A DNA stretch of 64,000 bases, from positions 4,977 through 68,976 of the forward strand of contig JBFLZJ010000023.1 in NCBI GenBank assembly GCA_040755875.1, in the 5' to 3' direction. The stretch's first letter is position 1. The number at the start of each line of letters is the position of its first letter. Made by a program: the position numbers and the translations under genes. The DNA comes from Pseudomonadota bacterium. Its GTDB lineage: Bacteria > Pseudomonadota > Gammaproteobacteria > Burkholderiales > Burkholderiaceae_D. The notes beneath the pieces were generated by a model. It had not been told where the DNA came from and did not search any database. It saw only the letters and a list, made by a program, of their open reading frames with translations. Below, in pieces: positions 1,929 to 36,077 of the stretch.

Positions 1929-2315
1929 TCAACGCCCCGCGCCCGGCTCCCCGGCGCTGGCCTGCACCGGCGCCTCGCTGCGCAGGGCCGCCATCTCCTG
2001 GCGCCAGGTATCCTGCGCCGCCTTCAGGCAGTCCGCCCTTTCGGCAGCAGGACCCTGCTTGCAGGCATTCTTCGCTTCATCCAGCGCGGCGCCGATTTCC
2101 TTCTGGCGCGTACGCATCCTTTCCTGGCGGGTCGTGTCTTCGCGGTACCAGCGTACCGGATCGCCGCGCGCGATCTCGCGCGCCTGTTTGCTGGCCGCGG
2201 CCGGGGCCACGTTGGCGTCGCTGCTCTGGGCCAGGGCCAGCGGGGCGGCCGCGCCGAGCAGGCCGGCAAGCAGCACGGGACCCAACATCGATCGAACGTT
2301 CATGTGCACCTCCAT
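1929..2315 (-). CDS. Secreted hypothetical protein with one C-X10-C helical-hairpin repeat
   Basis: Signal peptide (LLAGLLGAAAPLALA); CKQGPAAERADC; GGAGG RBS. Confidence 0.7.
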   Translation of the reverse strand: MEVHMNVRSMLGPVLLAGLLGAAAPLALAQSSDANVAPAAASKQAREIARGDPVRWYREDTTRQERMRTRQKEIGAALDEAKNACKQGPAAERADCLKAAQDTWRQEMAALRSEAPVQASAGEPGAGR

Positions 2316-2411
2316 AATGGAAGAGGGCCGGCGCAGGCCGGCCCGTGGGCAGTCGAGGAAGCCGCCGCGGCGCAGGGCGCGCTGGCCGGCCGCGGCGCTC
2401 TTCCCGATTGA

Positions 2412-2876
2412 TCAGTAGCGGTAGACGCGGCCGTCGACCAGGCGCACGCGGTTGCCCACGCGCAGGTCGTAGACGCTGTCCTGGACCACGGTGCGGTATT
2501 CGCCGTTGTCCATGCGCACATTGATCTGGTACATCTCCTGGCCGCCGCCGGCATTGCGGTTGCGTTCGACGTTGTTGCCGATCGCCGCGCCGGCCACGCC
2601 TCCGGCCACGGTGGCCGCCGTGCGGCCGCTGCCGCTGCCGACCTGGTTGCCTGCCAGTGCGCCCACCAGGCCGCCCACGACGGCGCCGGCGCCGCTGGTG
2701 CGGTTCTCGGCCTGGGTCACCTGGATCGACTCGATGGTGCCGTAGCCCATCGACGCGGTGTTGTTGTAGCCGCTGTTGTAGCCATTGTTGCTGTAAGACG
2801 GCGTGTTGCTGGCGCAGCCCGACAGGATCGCGGTGGCCGCGACGACGGCGGCGGCAAGAGTGCGGGTAGTCTTCAT
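2412..2876 (-). CDS. Glycine-zipper 2TM outer-membrane lipoprotein (SlyB-like)
   Basis: Lipobox ILSGC; GAVVGGLVGALAGNQVGSG...GGVAGAAIG glycine zipper; start at MKTTR after an AGGAG RBS. Confidence 0.88.
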   Translation of the reverse strand: MKTTRTLAAAVVAATAILSGCASNTPSYSNNGYNSGYNNTASMGYGTIESIQVTQAENRTSGAGAVVGGLVGALAGNQVGSGSGRTAATVAGGVAGAAIGNNVERNRNAGGGQEMYQINVRMDNGEYRTVVQDSVYDLRVGNRVRLVDGRVYRY

Positions 2877-3067
2877 ATTGTTCTCCTGGCAAAAGGTGTA
2901 GGTCAAGAATAAGGAGGCCAGGGGCGGGGGTCTGTGCGATCACGCACGCTTGTTTGCCTGTTTGATATGTCAAACAATCATCTTCTTGTTGTGTTCGACA
3001 GCGTACAGAAACCCGGCTGTAATCGGCGTAAAACGTTCTTAGCGTGTTGACAAATGGAGCTAAGAAC

Positions 3068-3688
3068 ATGACAACAAGAATGAAAAATGCGCATGCGCTA
3101 CTGATACTCGGTGCGGCCCTGCTGTGGGTCGGCCAGGCCCGCGCCCAGGCCGTGACGACACCGGCGCCGGCAAGCCCGGCCGTCGCCGGCGCGCCGGCCG
3201 CCACCGCCACCGTGCCGGATGCCAAGACTGCCTATGAACGGGCGCGCGACATGGCCAACGCCAACTACAAGACGGCGCGCGCCCGCTGCGACAGCCTCAG
3301 CGGCAACCCGCACGACGTCTGCGAGGCCGAGGCCAAGGCCGAGCGCGTGCGTGCCGAGGAAGAAGCGGGCGCCGCCTACAAGAACACCCTGAAGGCCTAT
3401 ACCCAGGCCCGCATGCGCATCGCCGACGCCAACTATGCGCGCGACAAGGCGCGCTGCGGCGCGCTGGCGGGCAACGACCGCGACGTGTGCCTGAAGCAGG
3501 CCAAGGCGACCCTGGTCGCCGCCCAGGCAGACGCCACCGCGGACCGCAAGACGATCGAAGCGCGCAACAACGCGCGCGAAGACAAACTGACGGCGCAATA
3601 CCGGGTCGCGCTCGAGAAGTGCGACGCGTTTGCCGGCGCGGCGAAGGACCAGTGCGTCCAGGCCGCAAAAACCGCGTACGGCAAGTGA
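3068..3688 (+). CDS. Secreted alanine-rich protein with three C-X10-C repeats
   Basis: Signal peptide ending ARA|QA; CDSLSGNPHDVC, CGALAGNDRDVC, CDAFAGAAKDQC. Confidence 0.75.
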   Translation: MTTRMKNAHALLILGAALLWVGQARAQAVTTPAPASPAVAGAPAATATVPDAKTAYERARDMANANYKTARARCDSLSGNPHDVCEAEAKAERVRAEEEAGAAYKNTLKAYTQARMRIADANYARDKARCGALAGNDRDVCLKQAKATLVAAQADATADRKTIEARNNAREDKLTAQYRVALEKCDAFAGAAKDQCVQAAKTAYGK

Positions 3689-3752
3689 CGTACCGGTCCC
3701 GCTCGCAGTGAGCAACGCTGTAACTTTGACCAACGAAAGAAAGGGATACATC

Positions 3753-4067
3753 ATGAAAATCACCCAACGTCTCGCTACCGCCGTCTTTACCGGCGCCCTC
3801 GCGTTCACCATGGTCGGTTGCGCTTCGGGCCCGCAGCGCGAAAGCGCCGGCGAATACGTCGACGACAGCGTCATCACCGCCAAGGTGAAGGCCGCCTTCG
3901 CTGCCGATCCGACCGTGAAGGCGACCGAGATCAACGTCGAGACCTTCAAGGGCGACGTCCAGCTGTCCGGCTTCGTGGCCCAGCCGAGCGACGCCCAGCG
4001 CGCCGTCGAGGTTGCACGCGGCGTGAAGGGTGTAACATCGGTCAAGAACGACATCCGCGTGAAGTAA
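3753..4067 (+). CDS. BON-domain lipoprotein (OsmY-like)
   Basis: Lipobox MVGC; DDSVITAKVKAAF...INVETFKGDVQLSGFV BON signature. Confidence 0.92.
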   Translation: MKITQRLATAVFTGALAFTMVGCASGPQRESAGEYVDDSVITAKVKAAFAADPTVKATEINVETFKGDVQLSGFVAQPSDAQRAVEVARGVKGVTSVKNDIRVK

Positions 4068-4116
4068 TTCCCGCCGCCGGGGCGGCGCGGACCGGCAAAC
4101 TCATTTCGGCAAACAC

Positions 4117-5361
4117 ATGCAACTCGCCAGTCCTGGCTCGGCTCCAGCCGAGCCGAACAACTCCGCCGCCCCCGAGGCAACTCCGGCAATCACGGCCGAG
4201 GCCGTGAAGCCGGAATCCGTCGTCGGCACGTCCGACGACCTCGCTCTCCACGCCGGAGGCCTGCGCCTCCCCATCCATGTGAACGCCCGCGGCCTGTCGC
4301 TGGGCATCCTGGCCACCGTGGCCTTCGTCTTCGCGCTGCAATGGGCGCAAAAATTCTTCGTGCCGCTCCTGCTCGGCATCTTCATCGCCTATACCCTGAG
4401 CCCGATCGTGCGCTGGCTCGAGCGCGTGCATATCCCGCGCCTGATCGGCGCCACCATCGTCACCGCCGCGCTGCTGGGCGGCATGGGCGCGACCATGTTC
4501 CGCCTGCAGGACGAATTCTTCAACATCCTCGACGAGCTGCCGACCCTGACCCAGAAGGTCAGCAAGCTGGTCGCCAGCGCCGCCGGCGGCGAGGGCTCGA
4601 CCATCCAGCGCGTGCAGAAGGCCGCCGCCGAGCTCGAGCAGGCGACCGCCAATGTCGGCGCCAATCCGCGCCTGGTCCAGCGCCGTCCCACGATGGCCCA
4701 GCAGTCGTCGAGTTTCCGGATCACCGACTGGCTGCTGGCCGGTTCGGTCGGGCTCGCTTCCTTCATCACCCAGGCCACCATGGTGGTGTTCCTGGTGTTC
4801 TTCCTGCTGCTGGCCGGCGACACCTTCAAGCGCAAGCTGGTCAAGCTGACCGGCCCCTCGCTGACGCGCAAGAAGGTGACGGTGCACATCCTGGACGACA
4901 TCAACACCTCGATCCAGAACTACATGTTCATGCTGCTGGTCACGAACATCCTGCTGGCCCTGCTGATGTGGGTGGCGCTGCGCGCAATCGGCCTGAACAA
5001 TGCCGGCGCCTGGGCGATCTTCGCCGGCGTGGCCCACATCATGCCTTACTTCGGCCCCTTGCTGATCACCTCGGCCACCGGCCTGGTGGCCTTCATGCAG
5101 TTCGAGTCGCTGCGCATGGTCATCCTGGTGGCCGGGGCCTCGATGGGCATCGCCACCCTGGTCGGCATGGTCGTCACCACCTGGATGACCGGCAAGATCG
5201 CGAAGATGAACCCGGCCGCCGTGTTCGTCAGCCTGCTGTTCTGGGGCTGGCTGTGGGGGATGTGGGGTTTGCTGCTCGGCGTGCCCGTGGTGGTGGTGCT
5301 GAAGGTGGTCGCCGAGCGGGTCGAGGGAATGGAAGCGCTGGCCGAGCTGCTGGGAGAATAG
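4117..5361 (+). CDS. AI-2E family transporter
   Basis: Multi-TM protein; HIMPYFGP and MNPAAVFVSLLFWGWLWGMWGLLLGVP motifs. Confidence 0.9.
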   Translation: MQLASPGSAPAEPNNSAAPEATPAITAEAVKPESVVGTSDDLALHAGGLRLPIHVNARGLSLGILATVAFVFALQWAQKFFVPLLLGIFIAYTLSPIVRWLERVHIPRLIGATIVTAALLGGMGATMFRLQDEFFNILDELPTLTQKVSKLVASAAGGEGSTIQRVQKAAAELEQATANVGANPRLVQRRPTMAQQSSSFRITDWLLAGSVGLASFITQATMVVFLVFFLLLAGDTFKRKLVKLTGPSLTRKKVTVHILDDINTSIQNYMFMLLVTNILLALLMWVALRAIGLNNAGAWAIFAGVAHIMPYFGPLLITSATGLVAFMQFESLRMVILVAGASMGIATLVGMVVTTWMTGKIAKMNPAAVFVSLLFWGWLWGMWGLLLGVPVVVVLKVVAERVEGMEALAELLGE

Positions 5362-5388
5362 CAGCCGGCCAGGCCGCAAGTCAGTTTC

Positions 5389-6303
5389 CTAGGCCATGCG
5401 CTTGACGTTCTTGGCGCCGGTCTCGTGGTCCGGCTTGTGGCGCAGGCTGCCCAGTTGCAGCGCGTACTGGCGGGCGAATTCCGCGCCGAGGAAGAAGATC
5501 TGGGCCGAGTAATACACCCAGAGCAGCAGGGCGATCAGCGAGCCCGCCGCGCCGAAGCTGTTGGCCGCGCCGCTGTTGCCGATGTACAGGCCGATGCCGA
5601 ATTTCCCCAGCGTGAACATGGCCGCGGTGCCGAGGGCGCCGATGGTCACGTCGTGCCAGGACAGCTTGATGCGCGGCAGCAGCTTGTAGATCACGCCGAA
5701 CAGGGTGGCGATGACGAGGAAGCTGATGCACGAGGAAATCCAGCCGACGATGATCGACGCCTCCTTGTACATGCCGCCGAAGTAGTTCTCGACCACGGCC
5801 ATCGCCGCGCTCACCACCAGCGACACCATCAGCAGGAAACCCAGCACCAGGATCAGGCCGAAGGAGAGCAGGCGCGTGCGCACCGTGTCCCACCAGCTCG
5901 CGTCCTTCGGCGGCGGCACGTCCCAGATCTCGTCCAGGCTGTCCTTCAGTTCGGCGAACACGCTGGTGGCGCCGACCAGCAGCAGGACGGTGGCGATGAT
6001 GGTGGCCAGGCGTCCGGATTCCTTGTTCTGGGCGCCGGCCAGCACGGACTGGATGGTGTCGGCGCCCTGGGCGCCCACGAGGCCGCGCAATTCGTTGAAC
6101 AGCTGGCCCCGGGCCGCATCGGCGCCATAGAAGAAGCCGGCGATCGCGATGACCAGCACCAGGATGGGGGCGAGCGAGAACAGGGTGTAGAAGGCCAGGG
6201 CCGCCCCCTTGCTGGCGGCGCGGTGCTCCAGCCATTCGCTGACCGCGCATTTCATCACATGGATGATCTGGCGTGAGAATGGAAACCATTGTTTTACAGC
6301 CAT
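5389..6303 (-). CDS. YihY / virulence factor BrkB family membrane protein
   Basis: GAALAFYTLFSLAP and FGAAGSLIALLLWVYYSAQIFFLGAEF motifs; the true start may be somewhat downstream. Confidence 0.92.
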   Translation of the reverse strand: MAVKQWFPFSRQIIHVMKCAVSEWLEHRAASKGAALAFYTLFSLAPILVLVIAIAGFFYGADAARGQLFNELRGLVGAQGADTIQSVLAGAQNKESGRLATIIATVLLLVGATSVFAELKDSLDEIWDVPPPKDASWWDTVRTRLLSFGLILVLGFLLMVSLVVSAAMAVVENYFGGMYKEASIIVGWISSCISFLVIATLFGVIYKLLPRIKLSWHDVTIGALGTAAMFTLGKFGIGLYIGNSGAANSFGAAGSLIALLLWVYYSAQIFFLGAEFARQYALQLGSLRHKPDHETGAKNVKRMA

Positions 6304-6570
6304 ACCGGATCCTCCAGAAAAGAGAAAGGGGCGCGAGGCCCCTTAAGGAAGCACTGATGTATTCTGGCGGATGGGATTGGCCATGGAAAAAAGCGGCCGG
6401 CAAGGCGCAAACCGCAGCCATACCGCGTGGTATGGCGAGGATGTGCAACGCAGCAGGACGGTTTTTCTCCAGGCCAAGACCGCCGTCATGAATAACTCAG
6501 CGCTTCCTTCGATGTGTACGGCCAGCGGAGGCCCGGTGGAACAGGCCCTTGCCCCGCCGGCCGGGTCACA

Positions 6571-7611
6571 TTACTGCACGCGCTTTTCGATCGTGATCTG
6601 CTCGACTTCGACGCGGCGGTTCGGCTCCAGGCACTTGATCAGCTCGGAACGCTTCTTCTGGTCGCACTGGACGACAGGGTTTTCCTCGCCCTTGCCGACG
6701 GCGTTCAGGCGGCTGCCGTCGATGCCCTTGCTGACCAGGTAGTCACGCACGGCGTTGGCGCGGCGCTCCGACAGCTTCTGGTTGTACTTTTCCGAACCCA
6801 GGCGGTCGGTGTAGCCGGTGATGTCGACGTTGGTGATGCTGGTGTCGGCCTGCAGGGCGGCGGCGATCTCGTCCAGGCGGGTCTGCGGCATGCGCAGCTC
6901 GGCCTTGTCGAACTCGAACAGCTCGGTTGCCGACAGCGTGACCTTCTCGAAACGGGCCGGCGGTGGCGGCGGCGGAGCGACCGGGGCCGGAGCCGGGGCC
7001 GGGGCTTCGGCGATCGGAGCCGGAGCCGGCGCCGGTGGGGCTGGCGGCGGGTTGAAGGCGTAGTTCAGGCCGACGGTGACGTACTTGTTGTTGCTCTGCT
7101 TGAAGCCATACAGTTCGTCGTCACGCAGGAAGCCGCGCACCGAGCGGATGTCGGCCTGCAGGTTCCACTGCGGGGTCAGGTCGACCTGGAAGCCGACGCC
7201 CATGGTGGCGTACGGCGAGTTCTTGCTGACGCGACGCAGCGGGTTGTCAACCTTGTCGCGCTCGGCGCCGACGCCGAACAGGACGAATGGGCGGAATCGT
7301 TCGCGCGACAGCATCAGCAGCGCATCGACGCCAAGCAGGGTCTGGCGATAGCGCGCAGCGCCGTCTTCGGTGCGGGCGTGGGTGGCGCCAACCTGGATGT
7401 CCCAGTACTGGTGCACCGCCTTACCGAACTTCAGGCCGCCGCCCCAGTCCTTGTCGTCCACGCCGAAGTCGGCGTCGGGCTTGATGCCGACGACGCTGGG
7501 CTGGATGTACCAGGACGGGTTGACGATCGGGGTTGCCGCATCTTGGGCCAGCGAGGAGCCGGCGGCGCAGAGCATGGCGACGGCCAGGGCGATCTTCTTC
7601 GAATTATTCAC
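6571..7611 (-). CDS. ompA: OmpA family outer-membrane protein
   Basis: Signal peptide, beta-barrel, Pro-Ala linker, and C-terminal OmpA domain (GYTDRLGSEKYNQKLSERRA, NRRVE); GTG start inferred. Confidence 0.92.
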   Translation of the reverse strand: MNNSKKIALAVAMLCAAGSSLAQDAATPIVNPSWYIQPSVVGIKPDADFGVDDKDWGGGLKFGKAVHQYWDIQVGATHARTEDGAARYRQTLLGVDALLMLSRERFRPFVLFGVGAERDKVDNPLRRVSKNSPYATMGVGFQVDLTPQWNLQADIRSVRGFLRDDELYGFKQSNNKYVTVGLNYAFNPPPAPPAPAPAPIAEAPAPAPAPVAPPPPPPARFEKVTLSATELFEFDKAELRMPQTRLDEIAAALQADTSITNVDITGYTDRLGSEKYNQKLSERRANAVRDYLVSKGIDGSRLNAVGKGEENPVVQCDQKKRSELIKCLEPNRRVEVEQITIEKRVQ

Positions 7612-8074
7612 AGGAAACTCCCATAAGTTGAAAAGGTAGGGTGACATCGCGTGCCTTGACAGTGATGTTGGAGTGAAGATTACGAGGCCGAGTTCCAAAG
7701 GGTCCGTGCGCTAGCGCACCTATAGGAACTGCTGAGTGACAAAACCGCAACATTGCCATCCTGTTCAAACCGCTCCTCTATATAGAGGGAAGGGCCTTGG
7801 GGGAGAATTGGAGGAATGTTTCTAATTTTCCACATTTCCGTGGTATTTCCACAACAACAGCCTGCCTGGGCCGTATTCCTTGATTTTTTGCAGAGAAGAA
7901 ATTGCCGAAATGCCTGCTGGAATTTTGCCAATGTGGGCTGGCGCACAGACCGGCCGGGCTGACGCAGGCAATCTTGAGGCCAGTTAAGCGGAACCCGAGG
8001 TGTTGTCAGGGTGTCAGACGACACACAGCGACCCGGACCACACAGTCTCTCTCTATCTAACGGAGTACACCAAC

Positions 8075-30691: not shown

Positions 30692-30852
30692 GTAGGGTGG
30701 GCGGCTCCAGTCGGGACTGCGAACCGACGCGCCGGTTGCGCCGCCCACGCGTTCGACAGTCCGGCGCAGACCGCGTCGGTTCACGCAGTCGTTGAACTGC
30801 TTGGCCAACACGACGCAGGCGCCACGCGTGGGCACGGGGGCGCCCACCCTAC
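30692..30852. repeat. GTAG-family REP doublet; left REP has an expanded loop
   Basis: gtagggtgggcgg...ccgcccacgcgt (30692-30752) and an inverted REP at about 30824-30852. Confidence 0.8.
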
Positions 30853-33608
30853 GCCGATGCCGGCGTTTCCGTTTCGTTCGGCTGTAGCTGGGTCAAACTC
30901 CCGCAGCTCCCCGGCCGCGCCACGTGCAGCGCGACCAGCTTCGCGATCTCCTCGGCCGTCACCGGCTTGCTGAACAAATAGCCCTGCATTTCGTCGCATT
31001 CGTTCTCGCGCAGGAACCGGCACTGCTGCTCGGTCTCGACGCCTTCGGCGATCACCTTGAGGTTCAGCTTGTGGCCGAGCGAGATCACCGCCATCGCGAT
31101 CGCCTGGTCGTCGGGATTGTCGGCCAGTTCGCTCACAAAGCTCTTGTCGATCTTCAGGCGGCTGATCGGGAAGCTCTTCAGCGAAGACAGGCTGGAGTAG
31201 CCGGTGCCGAAGTCGTCGATCGACAGCGACACCCCCATCGCCTTCAGTTCGCGCATGGTCCCGACCGACTTCTGCAGGTCGCGCATGATCAGGCTCTCGG
31301 TCACTTCCAGCTCCAGCAGCGCGGGCGGCAGGCCGGAGTCGACGAGGGCGGCGGCAACCCGGTCGACCAGGCGCGCTTCCTCGAACTGGCGCGCCGAGAC
31401 GTTCACCGAGACCGTGATCGGCCCCATGCCGGCTTCGCGCCAGGCCTGGGCCTGGCGGCAGGCGGTGCGCACCACCCAGTCGCCGATCGGCACGATCAGG
31501 CCGCTTTCCTCGGCCAGGCCGATGAAGCGCTGCGGCGGCACCACGCCGTGTTCCGGGTGGCGCCAGCGGATCAGGGCTTCGACGCCGAAGATGCGTCCGC
31601 TCTTCAGGTCGACCTTGGGCTGGTACAGCAGGTAGAAGCTGTTGTCGCCGCCGCCGTCGACGGTCGCCTGGACCGCCTGGCGCAGGCCTTCGAGCAGCAC
31701 CAGCTTTTCCTCGACGCTGGCGTTCATCTCGCGCGCGTAGAACTGGAAGTTGTTGCTGCCCAGGTCCTTGGCGCGGTACATCGCGGCGTCGGCGTTCATG
31801 AGCAGGGCGCTGGCGTCGAGCCCGTCGCGCGGATACATCACCACGCCCATGCTGCAGCTGACCTGCACCGCCTGGCCGGCGACCTGCACCGGTTCGGTGA
31901 CGGCGACGCGGATCTTTTCCAGCAGCGGCGCCAGCGCCTTCGGGTCCTGGCCCTGGCCCTGGTCCGGCAGCAGGATGACGAACTCGTCGCCGCCGAAGCG
32001 CGCCAGGGTATCGTTGCGGCGCAGGCAGGCGCCCATGCGCTTGCTGACCACTTTCAGCAGCTCGTCGCCGGCCTTGTGGCCGAGGCCGTCGTTGACCAGC
32101 TTGAAGCCGTCGAGGTCGACGAAGGCCAGCGCCACGCCCTCGCCGTTGCGCGCGGCGTTGCGGATCGCCTGGTCGATGCGGTCGTGCATCAGGGTGCGGT
32201 TCGGCAGGCCGGTGAGCTCGTCGTGGTGGGCCATGTGGAAGATGCGCTCCTCGGCCAGCTTGCGCTCGGTAATGTCGCGCACGATCGCCACCACGCCGTC
32301 CTCGACCGCCACCACCTGGCGGTGCAGCCAGCGCCCCTGGGCGCTCGGGGCATGGGCCTGCCATTCGCCTTCGCGCGGCTGGCCGGTGGTGGCCACCAGC
32401 GCCAGGTCCTCGAAGATGCCGTTGCTGCGGAAGTGGGGCAGCAGCTCGCACAGGCGGGTGCCGCACAGCGTCTCGTGGTCCATGCCGAAGATGGCTTCGG
32501 CGGCCGAGTTGGCGGCCTCGATCTCGAAATCGAGCACCGTGCCGCGCAGGTCGCGCACCGTGCGCAGCACGACGAAGGCGTCCAGGCTGCCTTCGGATGC
32601 GGCGGCATAGGTCTCCTGGGCGCGGCGCGCGCGGCGCCGTGCTTTCGTCAGCTGCCAGGACCATACCGAGATCACCCCGACCACCGCCAGCAGCAGGGCG
32701 CTGGCGGCGCCGGCGGCCAGCAGCCAGGTGCCGCGGCTCTGCTCGAAGGACGCGAACTGCTCGTCCTGCGCCAGGCCGACCACCACCGCCAGCGGGAAGC
32801 CGTGCAGGCGCCGCACGCTGGTGTAGCGCGCCAGGCCGTCGGGCGCGCCGCGGCGCAGCATCACCGTTTCCTGTGCCGCGTGGCCCAGTTCGATGCGCTG
32901 GCCCCAGCTGACCTCGTCGCCGATGCGCAGCGCGCGCATCACGCCGTCGGTGCCGGCCAGCCCCAGCATGCCGTGCTCGCCATCGCGCCCGTGCTCGTAG
33001 GCGCTGGTGAAATAGGCCGGGTCGACCTCGACGATGGCGATGCCGGCGAAGCGGCCGGCGGCGTCGTTGATGCGGCGCGTGAAGTGCAGGTGGGGCTCGG
33101 ATTTGACGGCGTCGCCGACGGTCGCCCCGACGAAGGGCTGGCCCTCGTCGTTGTCGCGGTGGTAGAGGAAGTAGGCGGCGTTCGAGACGTCGAGCGCGCC
33201 TTCGTCCGGGTTCCTGGCGACGATGCGCCCGTCGCGGTCGGCGATGGCGACCACGAACACCAGCGCGGGGGGCAGCAGGCCCTGCTGGCTCAGCGCGGGC
33301 AGGGCGCCTTGCGTGCCTTTCAGCTCGACCGCGTACTTGAGCACCTTCAGGGTCTGGTCGATGCCGTTCAGGCTGCGCGCCATCTGGGCCTCGTAGGTGT
33401 CGAGCCGCTCGCGCGTGGCCGCTTCGGCGGCGATGCCCGCGGCCTGGCGTTCCGATTCGATGAAGCGCAGCGTCAGCGGCCACATCGCCGCCACCAGCAG
33501 CAGCGCGAACAGGGGCAGGGCCACGTGGGTTTCGAGCGCGCGGCCGAGCCGGCGCGCCAGGCGGCTGCGGCGCGCCGGGCGGCGCGTTGCGAGCTTGGGT
33601 GTCCTCAT
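30849..33608 (-). CDS. Membrane Cache-PAS-GGDEF-EAL c-di-GMP enzyme
   Basis: Two TM helices around a periplasmic Cache-like domain; RRND I-site then RFGGDEF; EAL and DDFGTGYSS intact. Confidence 0.95.
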   Translation of the reverse strand: MRTPKLATRRPARRSRLARRLGRALETHVALPLFALLLVAAMWPLTLRFIESERQAAGIAAEAATRERLDTYEAQMARSLNGIDQTLKVLKYAVELKGTQGALPALSQQGLLPPALVFVVAIADRDGRIVARNPDEGALDVSNAAYFLYHRDNDEGQPFVGATVGDAVKSEPHLHFTRRINDAAGRFAGIAIVEVDPAYFTSAYEHGRDGEHGMLGLAGTDGVMRALRIGDEVSWGQRIELGHAAQETVMLRRGAPDGLARYTSVRRLHGFPLAVVVGLAQDEQFASFEQSRGTWLLAAGAASALLLAVVGVISVWSWQLTKARRRARRAQETYAAASEGSLDAFVVLRTVRDLRGTVLDFEIEAANSAAEAIFGMDHETLCGTRLCELLPHFRSNGIFEDLALVATTGQPREGEWQAHAPSAQGRWLHRQVVAVEDGVVAIVRDITERKLAEERIFHMAHHDELTGLPNRTLMHDRIDQAIRNAARNGEGVALAFVDLDGFKLVNDGLGHKAGDELLKVVSKRMGACLRRNDTLARFGGDEFVILLPDQGQGQDPKALAPLLEKIRVAVTEPVQVAGQAVQVSCSMGVVMYPRDGLDASALLMNADAAMYRAKDLGSNNFQFYAREMNASVEEKLVLLEGLRQAVQATVDGGGDNSFYLLYQPKVDLKSGRIFGVEALIRWRHPEHGVVPPQRFIGLAEESGLIVPIGDWVVRTACRQAQAWREAGMGPITVSVNVSARQFEEARLVDRVAAALVDSGLPPALLELEVTESLIMRDLQKSVGTMRELKAMGVSLSIDDFGTGYSSLSSLKSFPISRLKIDKSFVSELADNPDDQAIAMAVISLGHKLNLKVIAEGVETEQQCRFLRENECDEMQGYLFSKPVTAEEIAKLVALHVARPGSCGSLTQLQPNETETPASA

Positions 33609-33616
33609 ATGTCCTC

Positions 33617-34048
33617 TCAGTTCACCAGCAGGACCTGGCGCACGCTGGGGTCGAGCGCATCGCGCTCGATGTAGCCGATCAGGCCGGGGTCCTCGGCGAC
33701 GGCGCGGCGCACGGCGGCGCTGCCCTGCAGCTCGCGCGGCGGCTGGCCGCGGCCGGTGAACACCATCTTCGACCAGTGCGCCTTGAGCAGGGCCGGGCTC
33801 TTGCCGGCAACGCGCTGGTAGAAGGTGTTGCGTTCTTGGGAGCCGAGCGGCTGGTCGACGGCCTCGGCCAGCGCGCCGCCCGGGAAGCGCGGGCTCTGGC
33901 CGAGGAAGATCGCGGCCACCTGGTCGGGGCGCAGCGTCTCGACGGGACTGCGGGCCGAGACGATCACCACCAGCTCGGCGGCCTGGCCGGCCGCGCAGGC
34001 AAGCAGCAGCGCCGCGGCGGCAAGCAGCCTGGAAATTGGGTTGCGCAT
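33617..34048 (-). CDS. Small periplasmic PBP-like protein (truncated PstS-like fold)
   Basis: Signal peptide; ELVVIVS...IFLG...WSKMVFTGRGQPP...VAEDPGLIGYI. Confidence 0.85.
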   Translation of the reverse strand: MRNPISRLLAAAALLLACAAGQAAELVVIVSARSPVETLRPDQVAAIFLGQSPRFPGGALAEAVDQPLGSQERNTFYQRVAGKSPALLKAHWSKMVFTGRGQPPRELQGSAAVRRAVAEDPGLIGYIERDALDPSVRQVLLVN

Positions 34049-34055
34049 GGCTGCC

Positions 34056-35315
34056 TCAGAACACGAAGTCGAGCGTTGCACTGCTGACGTGCGCCGTCCG
34101 GCCCGAGCGGAAGTCCGGGCCCAGGTTCATCATCGTGCCGCGCGAGCCGGCGCGCGGGGTCACGCGGTCGTACTGCAGCTTGAGGGCGGCGTTCGAGGCC
34201 AGGTCCCAGCGCAGGCCGGCGCTGACGGTGGACTGCGAGGCGATCGTGCGCAGCATCGTCGCGACGCCCTCGTTCAGGGCCGCACCCGCCGCGGCGAGGT
34301 CCGCCGGCAAACCGTCCAGCACCAGCGCATGCGGGCCTTCCGGCTTCTTGCCCCAGATGCGGGCGTAGCTGAGATAGGGGGTGAGCGCGCCGCGACGGAA
34401 GCCGCTGCTGGCATAGACCGAGTTGGTGGTCCCGAGGAAGGAATTGACCCGGTAGTGGCCGGCTTCGGCCATGACGAACCACTGGCCCGGGTCGTAGTTC
34501 ATGCCGATACTGGCGGCGTTGGCGCGCTTGCGCTCGGTGGCGACGGCGCTCGCCACCGCCTCGCCCTGTTCGCCGAAGGCGCGCAGGCCCGCGAACAGCT
34601 GCGGGTAGAGCGACACCGTCAGGCGCGTGGTGAGGATCGAGGCGCGCACGCTCAGGTCGCCGCGCTCGATGGTGTGCGACAGGCCGGCGATGTCGCTGCC
34701 GCGCAGCCGCGCGCCGTCGTACAGCGCGATGTCGGTGCGGCCGGCGAAGGCCTGGGTGGTGCCGCGCAGCGTGTCGCCGTTCCAGCGCCAGCTGAGATCG
34801 AGGCCGTCGCTGCTCGACAGCGGCACGGCGCCATAGACTTCGACCGGCGTGCGCGCCCAGGGATAGGCGTAGCCGACCTTGCGGTAGTCGGCGGCGACGA
34901 ACATCGGCAGCGCGATGCGCCCGACGCGCAGCGCCACTTCCGGCGTCGCCTGGTATTTCACGTTGGCCCATTCCACACGCGGCCGGTAGCTGTAGTCCAG
35001 GCGCTGTTCGCTCACCACCTGCAGCACCGCCGACCAGCGCTGGTCGATGTGCAGGTCGACCTGCGCGCCCAGCTTGCTGTCCACGTGCGGGCTCCAATCG
35101 TGGGTGCGGCCGGCGCCGTCGCCCTTCATCGCCGACGAACTGTAGTCGGCATTGTGCTCGCTCGAATGGGCGGCGCCGAGCGTGCCGAAGCCGGACAGCT
35201 TCCAGGTCGGTGTCGTGTCGTCGGCGGCCTGGGCGGCGCCGGTCAGGGTCATGGCCAGCAGGCTGGCGCGCACGGCGCCGGGCATACGCCTGCCGCAAGA
35301 TTGGAACGGGTGCAT
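34056..35315 (-). CDS. Porin-like outer-membrane beta-barrel protein
   Basis: Signal peptide; WKLSGFGTLG start; amphipathic strands; C-terminal ATLDFVF. Confidence 0.82.
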   Translation of the reverse strand: MHPFQSCGRRMPGAVRASLLAMTLTGAAQAADDTTPTWKLSGFGTLGAAHSSEHNADYSSSAMKGDGAGRTHDWSPHVDSKLGAQVDLHIDQRWSAVLQVVSEQRLDYSYRPRVEWANVKYQATPEVALRVGRIALPMFVAADYRKVGYAYPWARTPVEVYGAVPLSSSDGLDLSWRWNGDTLRGTTQAFAGRTDIALYDGARLRGSDIAGLSHTIERGDLSVRASILTTRLTVSLYPQLFAGLRAFGEQGEAVASAVATERKRANAASIGMNYDPGQWFVMAEAGHYRVNSFLGTTNSVYASSGFRRGALTPYLSYARIWGKKPEGPHALVLDGLPADLAAAGAALNEGVATMLRTIASQSTVSAGLRWDLASNAALKLQYDRVTPRAGSRGTMMNLGPDFRSGRTAHVSSATLDFVF

Positions 35316-35400
35316 GGTGTCAGTGTCCTCAAGAATCCTTCGCGGCGGCGAAGGCGGCGAAGGAAATCGGGCGGCCGCCGAGGCTGGTGCTGGCGGACCG

Positions 35401-35470
35401 GTTACGTGCACGATCTTATGTGCACGATGTTACGCGCACGATATTACGTGCGCGATCCTGCGTGCATGAC
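35401..35470. repeat. Tandem array of 14-bp units NTTACGTGCACGAT (4 good copies plus 1 degenerate)
   Basis: gttacgtgcacgat / cttatgtgcacgat / gttacgcgcacgat / attacgtgcgcgat / cctgcgtgcatgac. Confidence 0.85.
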
Positions 35471-35720
35471 GCACGGAAAGACTTTAGCGAACGCATACGT
35501 GAAAGTCGATAAATTTGCGTGAGGAAACTTAGAGTCGGTCCACTATCGTTGTGCTGCGGCAACGAGTGTTATCGGCGTCATATCGATCGTCATCCGGCTT
35601 GTGCACTGTGCTGGGGCGGACAGGCCGCGCCGGGGTCGCCAGTTTGGCGCGTTAGCAAGTATGATGGCGCATACAGGCCGTCACGTCGACGCCCTCCTCG
35701 CCGGAACCGATCACGAAACG

Positions 35721-36077
35721 ATGCGCCGCTGGGTACTCATCATTCTGCTGCTGGTCTATCCCTTCCAGGTTGCCCTGGCAATGGCCGACCGCTGCTGCGT
35801 GACGACGCCGGCCGGCCTCACCCATCACGTCGCCGCGGACGTGCAGGGCGCCGCGGCGCTCCAGCCGGTATTCGTGGCCGACGACGGCTATTCCCTGCTG
35901 GCCGATCCGCATTGCGCCGCGTGCAGCCTGGGCCACAGTGTCGGCCTTCCTTCCGTTGCGTCGGCCCTGCCTGGCGCTGCGCATCAGTCCAGCGTTGCCG
36001 CCGCCGCGCTGCCTTTCCTGGCGCCGCCCCCGGTGGCCCGTCCCGAACGTCCCAAGTGGCCTGCCGCCGCTGAGTAG
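35721..36077 (+). CDS. CzcI-like periplasmic metal-binding protein
   Basis: MRRWVLIILLLVYPFQ, CC..THH and HCAAC; located directly upstream of czcC. Confidence 0.72.
   Translation: MRRWVLIILLLVYPFQVALAMADRCCVTTPAGLTHHVAADVQGAAALQPVFVADDGYSLLADPHCAACSLGHSVGLPSVASALPGAAHQSSVAAAALPFLAPPPVARPERPKWPAAAE

Follow-up and report, generated by a model that had tools for sequence, protein, structure and literature searches.

The three-gene locus

The analyzed window is a 64,000-nt stretch of contig JBFLZJ010000023.1 from a Pseudomonadota bacterium of the Burkholderiales. Judging by how close homologs are named, the organism belongs to Massilia (family Oxalobacteraceae). Its minus strand carries three co-directional open reading frames (ORFs), which encode an outer-membrane porin, a small exported protein resembling one lobe of the phosphate-binding protein PstS (hereafter, the half-protein), and an inner-membrane enzyme of cyclic di-GMP (c-di-GMP) signaling. 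Previously, a reading of this DNA without database searches (the sequence-only reading) proposed that the three genes form a trans-envelope c-di-GMP signaling system. The comparative data presented here support the three genes as a conserved functional unit, in which the porin and the half-protein are most readily understood as a portable front end for sensing in the periplasm. The genes and domains of the unit are as follows (TM, transmembrane segment).

34056..35315, minus strand: outer-membrane porin gene, 419 aa (ORF and sequence, AlphaFold, Foldseek)
33617..34048, minus strand: exported single-lobe PstS-like protein, the half-protein, 143 aa (AlphaFold, Foldseek)
30849..33608, minus strand: inner-membrane c-di-GMP enzyme, 919 aa, with TM1, periplasmic double-PDC/dCache domain, TM2, PAS, GGDEF, and EAL (Pfam, NCBIfam, hydropathy)
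32721..33482, minus strand: periplasmic sensor domain of the enzyme (group D, see below), residues 43-296, that is, 254 residues between hydrophobic segments 24-42 and 297-315
32259..32531, minus strand: cytoplasmic PAS domain of the enzyme, residues 360-450 (PAS_4, 42.8 bits)
31752..32231, minus strand: GGDEF domain of the enzyme, residues 460-619 (PF00990, 159.3 bits, profile positions 1-160 of 161)
30963..31646, minus strand: EAL domain of the enzyme, residues 655-882 (PF00563, 246.6 bits)

The arrangement agrees with the sequence-only reading in strand, coordinates, and spacing. A gap of 7 nt (ggcagcc) separates the porin gene from the ATG of the half-protein gene at 34048, and 8 nt (gaggacat) lie between the stop of the latter at 33617 and the ATG of the enzyme gene at 33608. 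No promoter-like or terminator-like site was found on the minus strand within the three-gene unit, the sole terminator-like match being on the plus strand (30851-30866). The porin ATG is preceded by GAGGA at a distance of 10 nt. An alternative in-frame ATG at 35285 would yield a 409-aa porin, the form picked by gene callers for a 99% identical protein.

The porin has a signal peptide ending in ...TGAAQA and a C-terminus ...LDFVF. Its AlphaFold model (predicted local distance difference test, pLDDT, 77.5) has 16 strands and a third loop with a helix (residues 136-167), and the top Foldseek matches of this model in PDB are OmpC, the chitoporin VhChiP, OmpF, and Omp32 (E 1e-13 to 1e-12). As modeled, the protein therefore combines the characteristics of general porins, namely a 16-stranded barrel, an inward-folded loop 3, and a C-terminal aromatic residue, and the beta-barrel with C-terminal Phe proposed from sequence is borne out. 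Relatives of the porin contain PF13609 (Porin_4); the window porin itself has only a sub-threshold match to OMP_b-brl in Pfam. The constriction-loop motif RxGRxxxPxFxx(S/A)DxRxVGYAxPWxRPPxExY is strongly conserved across the family in two porin alignments. The porin has neither a lipobox nor an OmpA_C domain.

The half-protein has a signal peptide ending in ...AAGQA, followed by AELVV... at the start of the 120 mature residues. It has no Pfam match at E<=0.01 and no NCBIfam match, and a phmmer search of PDB gave a weak match to residues 80-185 of PstS1 (4EXL). The structural evidence is clearer. The AlphaFold model has a pLDDT of 95.8, and each of its 39 best Foldseek matches in PDB is a phosphate-binding protein of the PstS type, the alignments spanning about 120 columns with a root-mean-square deviation of 2.0-2.2 A. 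Because these columns cover only part of PstS chains of 240-320 residues, the half-protein corresponds to one lobe, and the model has a single lobe in place of the two-lobe Venus-flytrap architecture. The single-lobe binding-protein-like product of 143 aa described in the sequence-only reading is thus confirmed at the level of predicted structure. Nearly all of the 50 Foldseek matches listed are periplasmic binding proteins (PstS, ModA, etc.), and YfiR is absent among them; searches of Pfam, NCBIfam, and PDB yielded no named family, YfiR-like or other.

The half-protein family comprises 4829 clusters at 50% identity (E<=1e-3), nearly all of them 130-160 aa long, and its hallmarks are the invariant alignment columns F76, W92, F97, G99, P103, P104, and Y126. 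The gathering score of PF12849 (PBP_like_2) was not reached: the window protein has no match, and P0284, a relative in which the domain is part of a fusion, scores 21.9 bits where 27 are required. In databases, members of the family are named 'phosphate ABC transporter substrate-binding protein' or hypothetical. The former name is very probably a systematic misannotation, since half-proteins have half the length of PstS and show no linkage to transporters of the ATP-binding cassette (ABC) type. The phosphate-binding residues of PstS lobe II are R135 and S139-G140-T141 (E. coli numbering). The Gly-Ser at the strand-to-helix turn is retained in most half-proteins, and the position of R135 is occupied by Gln66 or Leu in a register that is our own structural reading and differs from the HMMER alignment. 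The ligand loop is divergent and clade-specific.

P0284 (744 aa, metagenomic) is the sole multi-domain protein among the 150 best half-protein representatives. Its M56 membrane peptidase part is of the BlaR1 type and is joined through a long, acidic linker of low complexity to two tandem half-protein domains (residues 491-607 and 625-738), which occupy the extracytoplasmic sensor position of the BlaR1-type transducer. Therefore, the half-protein domain is able to work as an extracytoplasmic sensor module, and the tandem arrangement hints at dimers.

In the enzyme, both catalytic motifs, GG(D/E)EF and EAL, are intact within full-length Pfam matches. An I-site, RRND, can be read in the translation five residues ahead of the GGDEF motif, and the EAL motifs are complete (EALIRW, NVS, ELEVTE, DDFGTGYSS, KIDKSF, EGVE, and QGY). 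Domain searches and motifs thus agree with the earlier claim of an intact GGDEF domain with I-site and an intact EAL domain. The Cache-like nature of the periplasmic part, also claimed earlier, is upheld by a match of residues 77-246 of the searched fragment to the sensor domain of a GGDEF protein (PDB 3LIF, E 8.2e-12), accompanied by a dCache_1 match of 28.8 bits, which is under the Pfam cut-off of 45. The region has the two characteristics of double-PDC sensors, that is, about 250 aa between two TM helices and double-PDC similarity. The cytoplasmic PAS domain is a feature absent from the sequence-only reading.

The porin/half-protein pair and neighboring sensors in other genomes

We searched an even set of 401 Pseudomonadota genomes and surveyed 80 loci (81 half-protein loci) from about 57 genomes; genes at these loci were called with a codon-position model trained on confirmed genes, so that ORF starts are possibly over-extended. 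Strong half-protein matches occur in 56 of the 401 genomes, with up to six copies in each. The carriers include Vibrio, Shewanella, Alteromonas, Halomonas, Thalassotalea, Gilvimarinus, and one magnetococcal genome. A porin homolog adjoins the half-protein gene on the same strand in 79 of 81 loci, coming first in 60 of them and second in 19. Conversely, a search with a diverse porin alignment found the porin family in 56 of the 401 genomes, 55 of which are common with the half-protein set, and every porin match adjoins a half-protein match. Such near-perfect co-occurrence and adjacency mean that the porin and the half-protein form an obligate pair.

The genome of the window contains exactly two porins of this family and two half-proteins. 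Its second cassette (locus L045, ~4764-8058; G000:C2:248722-251500) encodes a porin of 408 aa, a half-protein of 135 aa that is 43% identical to that of the window, and a 530-aa chemoreceptor whose periplasmic domain of about 150 aa is not recognized by Pfam. Multiplied cassettes were observed at several other loci: the order half-protein, porin, half-protein, porin is found in L102 and L105, two porins precede one half-protein in L039, and two pairs lie within 4 kb in L049.

The third gene was analyzed both in close relatives and across the whole sample. The set of close relatives, found with a 10-row alignment, comprises 80 loci, mostly from Massilia. At least 57 of them keep a half-protein gene followed by a GGDEF-EAL enzyme with a window-type periplasmic domain, and the full order of porin, half-protein, and enzyme is seen in 40 of those. 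In the wider sample, a membrane sensor is the immediate neighbor of the pair in 61 of 81 loci, and nearly all of these sensors have the topology TM-periplasmic domain-TM. Their output domains in Pfam are GGDEF in 26 (13 with EAL and 13 without), MCPsignal in 23, HATPase_c in ten, and HD_5 in two. The GGDEF and kinase partners encoded on the same strand overlap the pair or lie within 30 nt of it in 26 of 33 cases. Next to pairs that lack a sensor we find unrelated genes (e.g., RecG, YcaO, PEPCK, peptidases, permeases), and no recurrent non-sensor third partner emerged, since no cluster of immediate neighbors had more than two members.

The sequence-only reading had left two questions to a neighborhood survey: whether the pair recurs with other sensors and whether it is usually linked to ABC transporters. 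It does recur with diguanylate cyclases and phosphodiesterases, chemoreceptors, and kinases; ABC ATPase-like genes within 6 kb are confined to 3 of 80 loci, and linkage of the pstCAB type was not found. The window agrees with this picture and with the earlier remark that no ABC permease or ATPase is nearby, as a motif search detected no gene with both Walker A and LSGGQ anywhere in the 64 kb. A possible ABC transporter immediately precedes the porin gene on the same strand at just one surveyed locus, L055 (~2300-4700); the upstream genes encode proteins of 277, 240, and 277 aa, the second of which has Walker A and LSGGQ.

By BLAST, the periplasmic domains of the sensors fall into five groups that cut across the output types:

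Group A: about 155 aa, in chemoreceptors only
Group B: about 120 aa, on GGDEF proteins, GGDEF-EAL proteins, and kinases
Group C: about 265 aa, on GGDEF, GGDEF-EAL, and HD-GYP proteins
Group D: about 250 aa, the group of the window enzyme, also found after the pair in L033, L034, L037, and L067
Group E: on kinases

Group C probably consists of dCache_3-type sensors, because Pfam assigns dCache_3 to 6 of the 61 sensors and also to L110, a member of group C. The group A domain is common to 21 chemoreceptor loci (e.g., L043, L053, and L081). Neither 4HB_MCP, TarH, nor a similar ligand-binding family is among the 25 Pfam families listed for the 61 sensors, and the group A domain may be an unnamed ligand-binding domain of chemoreceptors. 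A hidden domain common to the five groups was considered and rejected, all hhalign probabilities being below 2%.

The evolution of the pair follows the input domains of the sensors. On a maximum-likelihood tree of the 81 half-proteins, which has few columns for so many rows and leaves many deep forks unresolved, the input groups require four changes, the minimum possible, compared with 25.7 on average and never fewer than 21 after shuffling; the output type requires 15 changes vs. 32.8 when shuffled. To control for kinship, each protein was compared with its closest counterpart outside its own taxonomic family. For the half-protein, the input group agrees between the two loci in 44 of 51 cases, as against a mean of 14.3 and a maximum of 25 after shuffling, and the output agrees in only 36 of 51. 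For the porin, the input group is likewise the same in 44 of 51. Furthermore, 12 genomes contain two copies beside sensors of differing input groups; hence, the correspondence does not simply reflect the species phylogeny. Since the lineages track the input group, the evolutionary unit consists of the porin, the half-protein, and the periplasmic input domain, with cytoplasmic outputs being swapped, as expected if the functional contact is periplasmic.

The genes that flank the unit in the window are unrelated to it. Upstream and divergent is a czc-like resistance-nodulation-division efflux operon (OEP, HlyD), and downstream and convergent is a gene of the LOG family, followed by TetR, phasin, and response regulator genes. 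The G+C content of the region around the three genes is 68-72%. Two features lie upstream of the porin gene:

35316..35600, no strand: non-coding stretch that separates the porin gene from the divergent czc-like operon
35402-35466: 14-bp tandem array, period 14, 4.6 copies, consensus TTACGTGCACGATC (Tandem Repeats Finder)

In other Massilia, orthologous porin genes lack a conserved copy of the array upstream. Its role as a conserved operator was considered, as CGTGCACG seemed overrepresented ahead of porin orthologs (20 of 76 loci), and was rejected because all cases but L177 fall within the conserved coding sequence of an HExxH protein. A 158-aa ORF between the array and the czcC-like gene (35601-36077, plus strand) is probably not a gene, as it has no Pfam match and was passed over by the codon-position gene caller.

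A proposed sensory front end and its alternatives

With respect to the proposal of a trans-envelope c-di-GMP system, the survey separates two components. The existence of a unit stands, given its retention in the close relatives. Specificity for c-di-GMP does not, since the output is interchangeable and about a quarter of the pairs have no sensor. We therefore favor, at a probability only somewhat above one half (roughly 0.55), the explanation that the porin and the single-lobe PstS-like protein are an obligate two-gene sensory front end that here serves the dCache domain of the enzyme. The signal could be transmitted as follows. The dedicated porin, with its constriction loop conserved across the family, would admit a solute; the half-protein would meet this solute in the periplasm, maybe as a dimer or via a composite site formed with the sensor domain, and would then dock on the periplasmic dCache domain. 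Docking would shift the balance between cyclase and phosphodiesterase and hence the level of c-di-GMP. In this scheme, we infer the physical contacts, the existence and nature of the ligand, and the direction of the effect on c-di-GMP.

Several observations weigh against this explanation. The five input groups are unrelated by hhalign, so one mode of docking would have to suit several folds. The observed co-diversification is also expected of any co-inherited cassette. The chemoreceptor partners are placed more loosely than the other sensors, with only 4 of 20 within 30 nt of the pair, and 15-20 of the 81 pairs have no adjacent sensor, which points to a possible function of their own. Finally, isolated lobes of binding proteins generally lose ligand binding (PMC10601554); together with the apparent replacement of R135 by Gln in our structural register, this makes a conventional ligand site doubtful.

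One alternative is that no small-molecule ligand is involved and the half-protein partitions between the periplasmic face of the porin and the sensor, reporting porin assembly, outer-membrane integrity, or envelope spacing. The strict one-to-one pairing and the co-diversification of porins and sensor groups suit such a protein-protein relay, and a single lobe in which the PstS arginine is replaced, if that register is correct, may bind a protein and not a solute. There are precedents for envelope sensing in YfiB-YfiR-YfiN and RcsF-OMP-IgaA. However, the barrel is a classical 16-stranded diffusion porin in which the constriction loop is the most conserved part, which argues for selective passage rather than for a docking face. 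Moreover, neither the porin nor the half-protein has a lipobox or a peptidoglycan-binding domain, and no homology to YfiB, YfiR, or RcsF is observed. We consider ligand-free sensing unlikely, although it is the strongest of the three alternatives.

Slightly less probable is a stand-alone device for the acquisition or retention of a scarce solute, e.g., a phosphorus compound, with the half-protein acting as a sink at the porin exit and the sensors located nearby through co-regulation only. The pairs without sensors, which sit beside unrelated metabolic genes, the descent of the half-protein from PstS, and the ABC-like genes directly upstream in L055 are in line with this possibility. But without a transporter a sink cannot bring about net uptake, and 77 of 80 loci have no ABC genes nearby. 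Co-regulation alone also explains neither the match between lineages and the type of periplasmic domain across taxonomic families nor the overlapping stop and start codons shared with GGDEF and kinase genes. The obligate adjacency and co-occurrence of the two genes could, in turn, reflect a half-protein that is a dedicated periplasmic chaperone or assembly factor of its porin, with a functionally independent sensor. This seems improbable: the match to the input domains of sensors would be left unexplained, and in the BlaR1-type fusion the domain is a sensor module although no porin domain is present. Besides, general porins are not known to need a private chaperone, and no known chaperone has the fold of a binding-protein lobe.

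If the pair is a sensory front end, a broader, tentative generalization can be made. The pair may represent a previously unrecognized and widespread class of plug-in co-receptors, present in about 15% of the sampled Pseudomonadota genomes in up to six copies, which gives chemoreceptors, histidine kinases, HD-GYP proteins, and GGDEF/EAL enzymes access to a signal needing its own outer-membrane channel. The ligand site would then exist only in a homodimer or together with the sensor domain (a 'split Venus flytrap'), and the half-proteins would constitute the first large family of functional binding proteins with a single lobe known from nature. Natural single-lobed binding proteins have been treated as rare and of unclear purpose (PMC10601554). 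A full-text literature search revealed no published description of the porin/half-protein/sensor cassette, consistent with the statement in the sequence-only reading that no functional characterization was known.

The signals of most bacterial sensors are unknown, and one accessory module common to four output classes would, if real, provide a general entry point to them. As roughly one in seven sampled Pseudomonadota genomes has the module, finding the porin substrate or the half-protein ligand for one clade would suggest the signal for many receptors. At present, the phosphate-ABC name, almost certainly erroneous, misleads the annotation of phosphate metabolism. The half-protein family also bears on the evolution of two-lobe binding proteins, and for the organism of the window the cassette is a candidate input to the control of biofilm formation and motility through c-di-GMP.

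Comparison with known systems

The sequence-only reading likened the locus to YfiBNR. The three-tier logic of this analogy holds: YfiB-YfiR-YfiN (TpbB) and HmsCDE are also tripartite, with outer-membrane, periplasmic, and inner-membrane components encoded in one operon and governing a c-di-GMP enzyme. Homology does not hold for any component. YfiB is an OmpA/Pal-like peptidoglycan-binding lipoprotein, YfiR, a repressor that acts on the cyclase and is captured by the outer-membrane partner, belongs to DUF4154, and YfiN lacks both EAL and dCache domains. Here, the outer-membrane part is a 16-stranded porin and not Pal-like, the half-protein has no match to YfiR in Pfam or among the Foldseek matches listed, and the dCache input is not of the YfiN type. 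Thus, two features that define the YfiBNR system, a Pal-like outer-membrane part and a member of the YfiR family, are both missing.

Another similarity is to systems in which a secreted partner with a binding-protein fold is encoded beside a membrane GGDEF-EAL protein with a periplasmic domain, such as NspS-MbaA of Vibrio cholerae, ScrB-ScrC, and PruR-DcpA. As in NspS-MbaA, signaling would proceed without an ABC transporter and with c-di-GMP as the output; the corresponding arrangement, a gene for a secreted protein of binding-protein fold next to a receptor with a periplasmic domain and no ABC genes, is found both in the window and across its relatives. On the other hand, NspS is PotD-like, has both lobes, and is known to bind a polyamine, whereas the window partner is one PstS lobe of 120 mature residues. 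This partner also comes with its own porin, and, family-wide, the pair would serve chemoreceptors, kinases, and HD-GYP proteins as well.

The combination of an outer-membrane channel, a periplasmic binding protein, and an inner-membrane receptor has precedents in LamB-MalE-Tar of E. coli and ChiP-CBP-ChiS of Vibrio, and the chitoporin VhChiP is among the Foldseek matches of the window barrel. In those systems, however, the full-size binding protein mainly supplies an ABC importer, and the three genes do not form a single cassette.

The PstS-CtpL system for phosphate chemotaxis in Pseudomonas aeruginosa offers a parallel for the half-protein itself, as a protein of PstS fold signals there to the periplasmic domain of a chemoreceptor. 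Chemoreceptors are the partners in 23 of 81 cassettes, including the second copy in the genome of the window. Compared with PstS and other PBP_like_2 proteins, the half-protein shares the lobe II fold and several core motifs, such as W..xxFTGxG..P and PGxIGY. It differs in its half size, the absence of lobe I, sub-threshold Pfam scores, the lack of pstCAB linkage, and a divergent ligand loop. CtpL works with PstS as the whole phosphate-binding protein of the Pst transporter (PMC8050422), whereas the half-protein keeps lobe II alone and, according to our structural register, does not keep the phosphate-binding arginine. NspS-MbaA and PstS-CtpL are both tabulated as signaling pairs with binding proteins in a review that lists only full-size proteins (PMC8050422).

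In summary, by analogy the cassette is closest in logic to LamB-MalE-Tar, ChiP-CBP-ChiS, NspS-MbaA, and PstS-CtpL, and it is set apart from these four systems by a binding protein of a single lobe, an obligate adjacent porin gene, and the absence of an importer.

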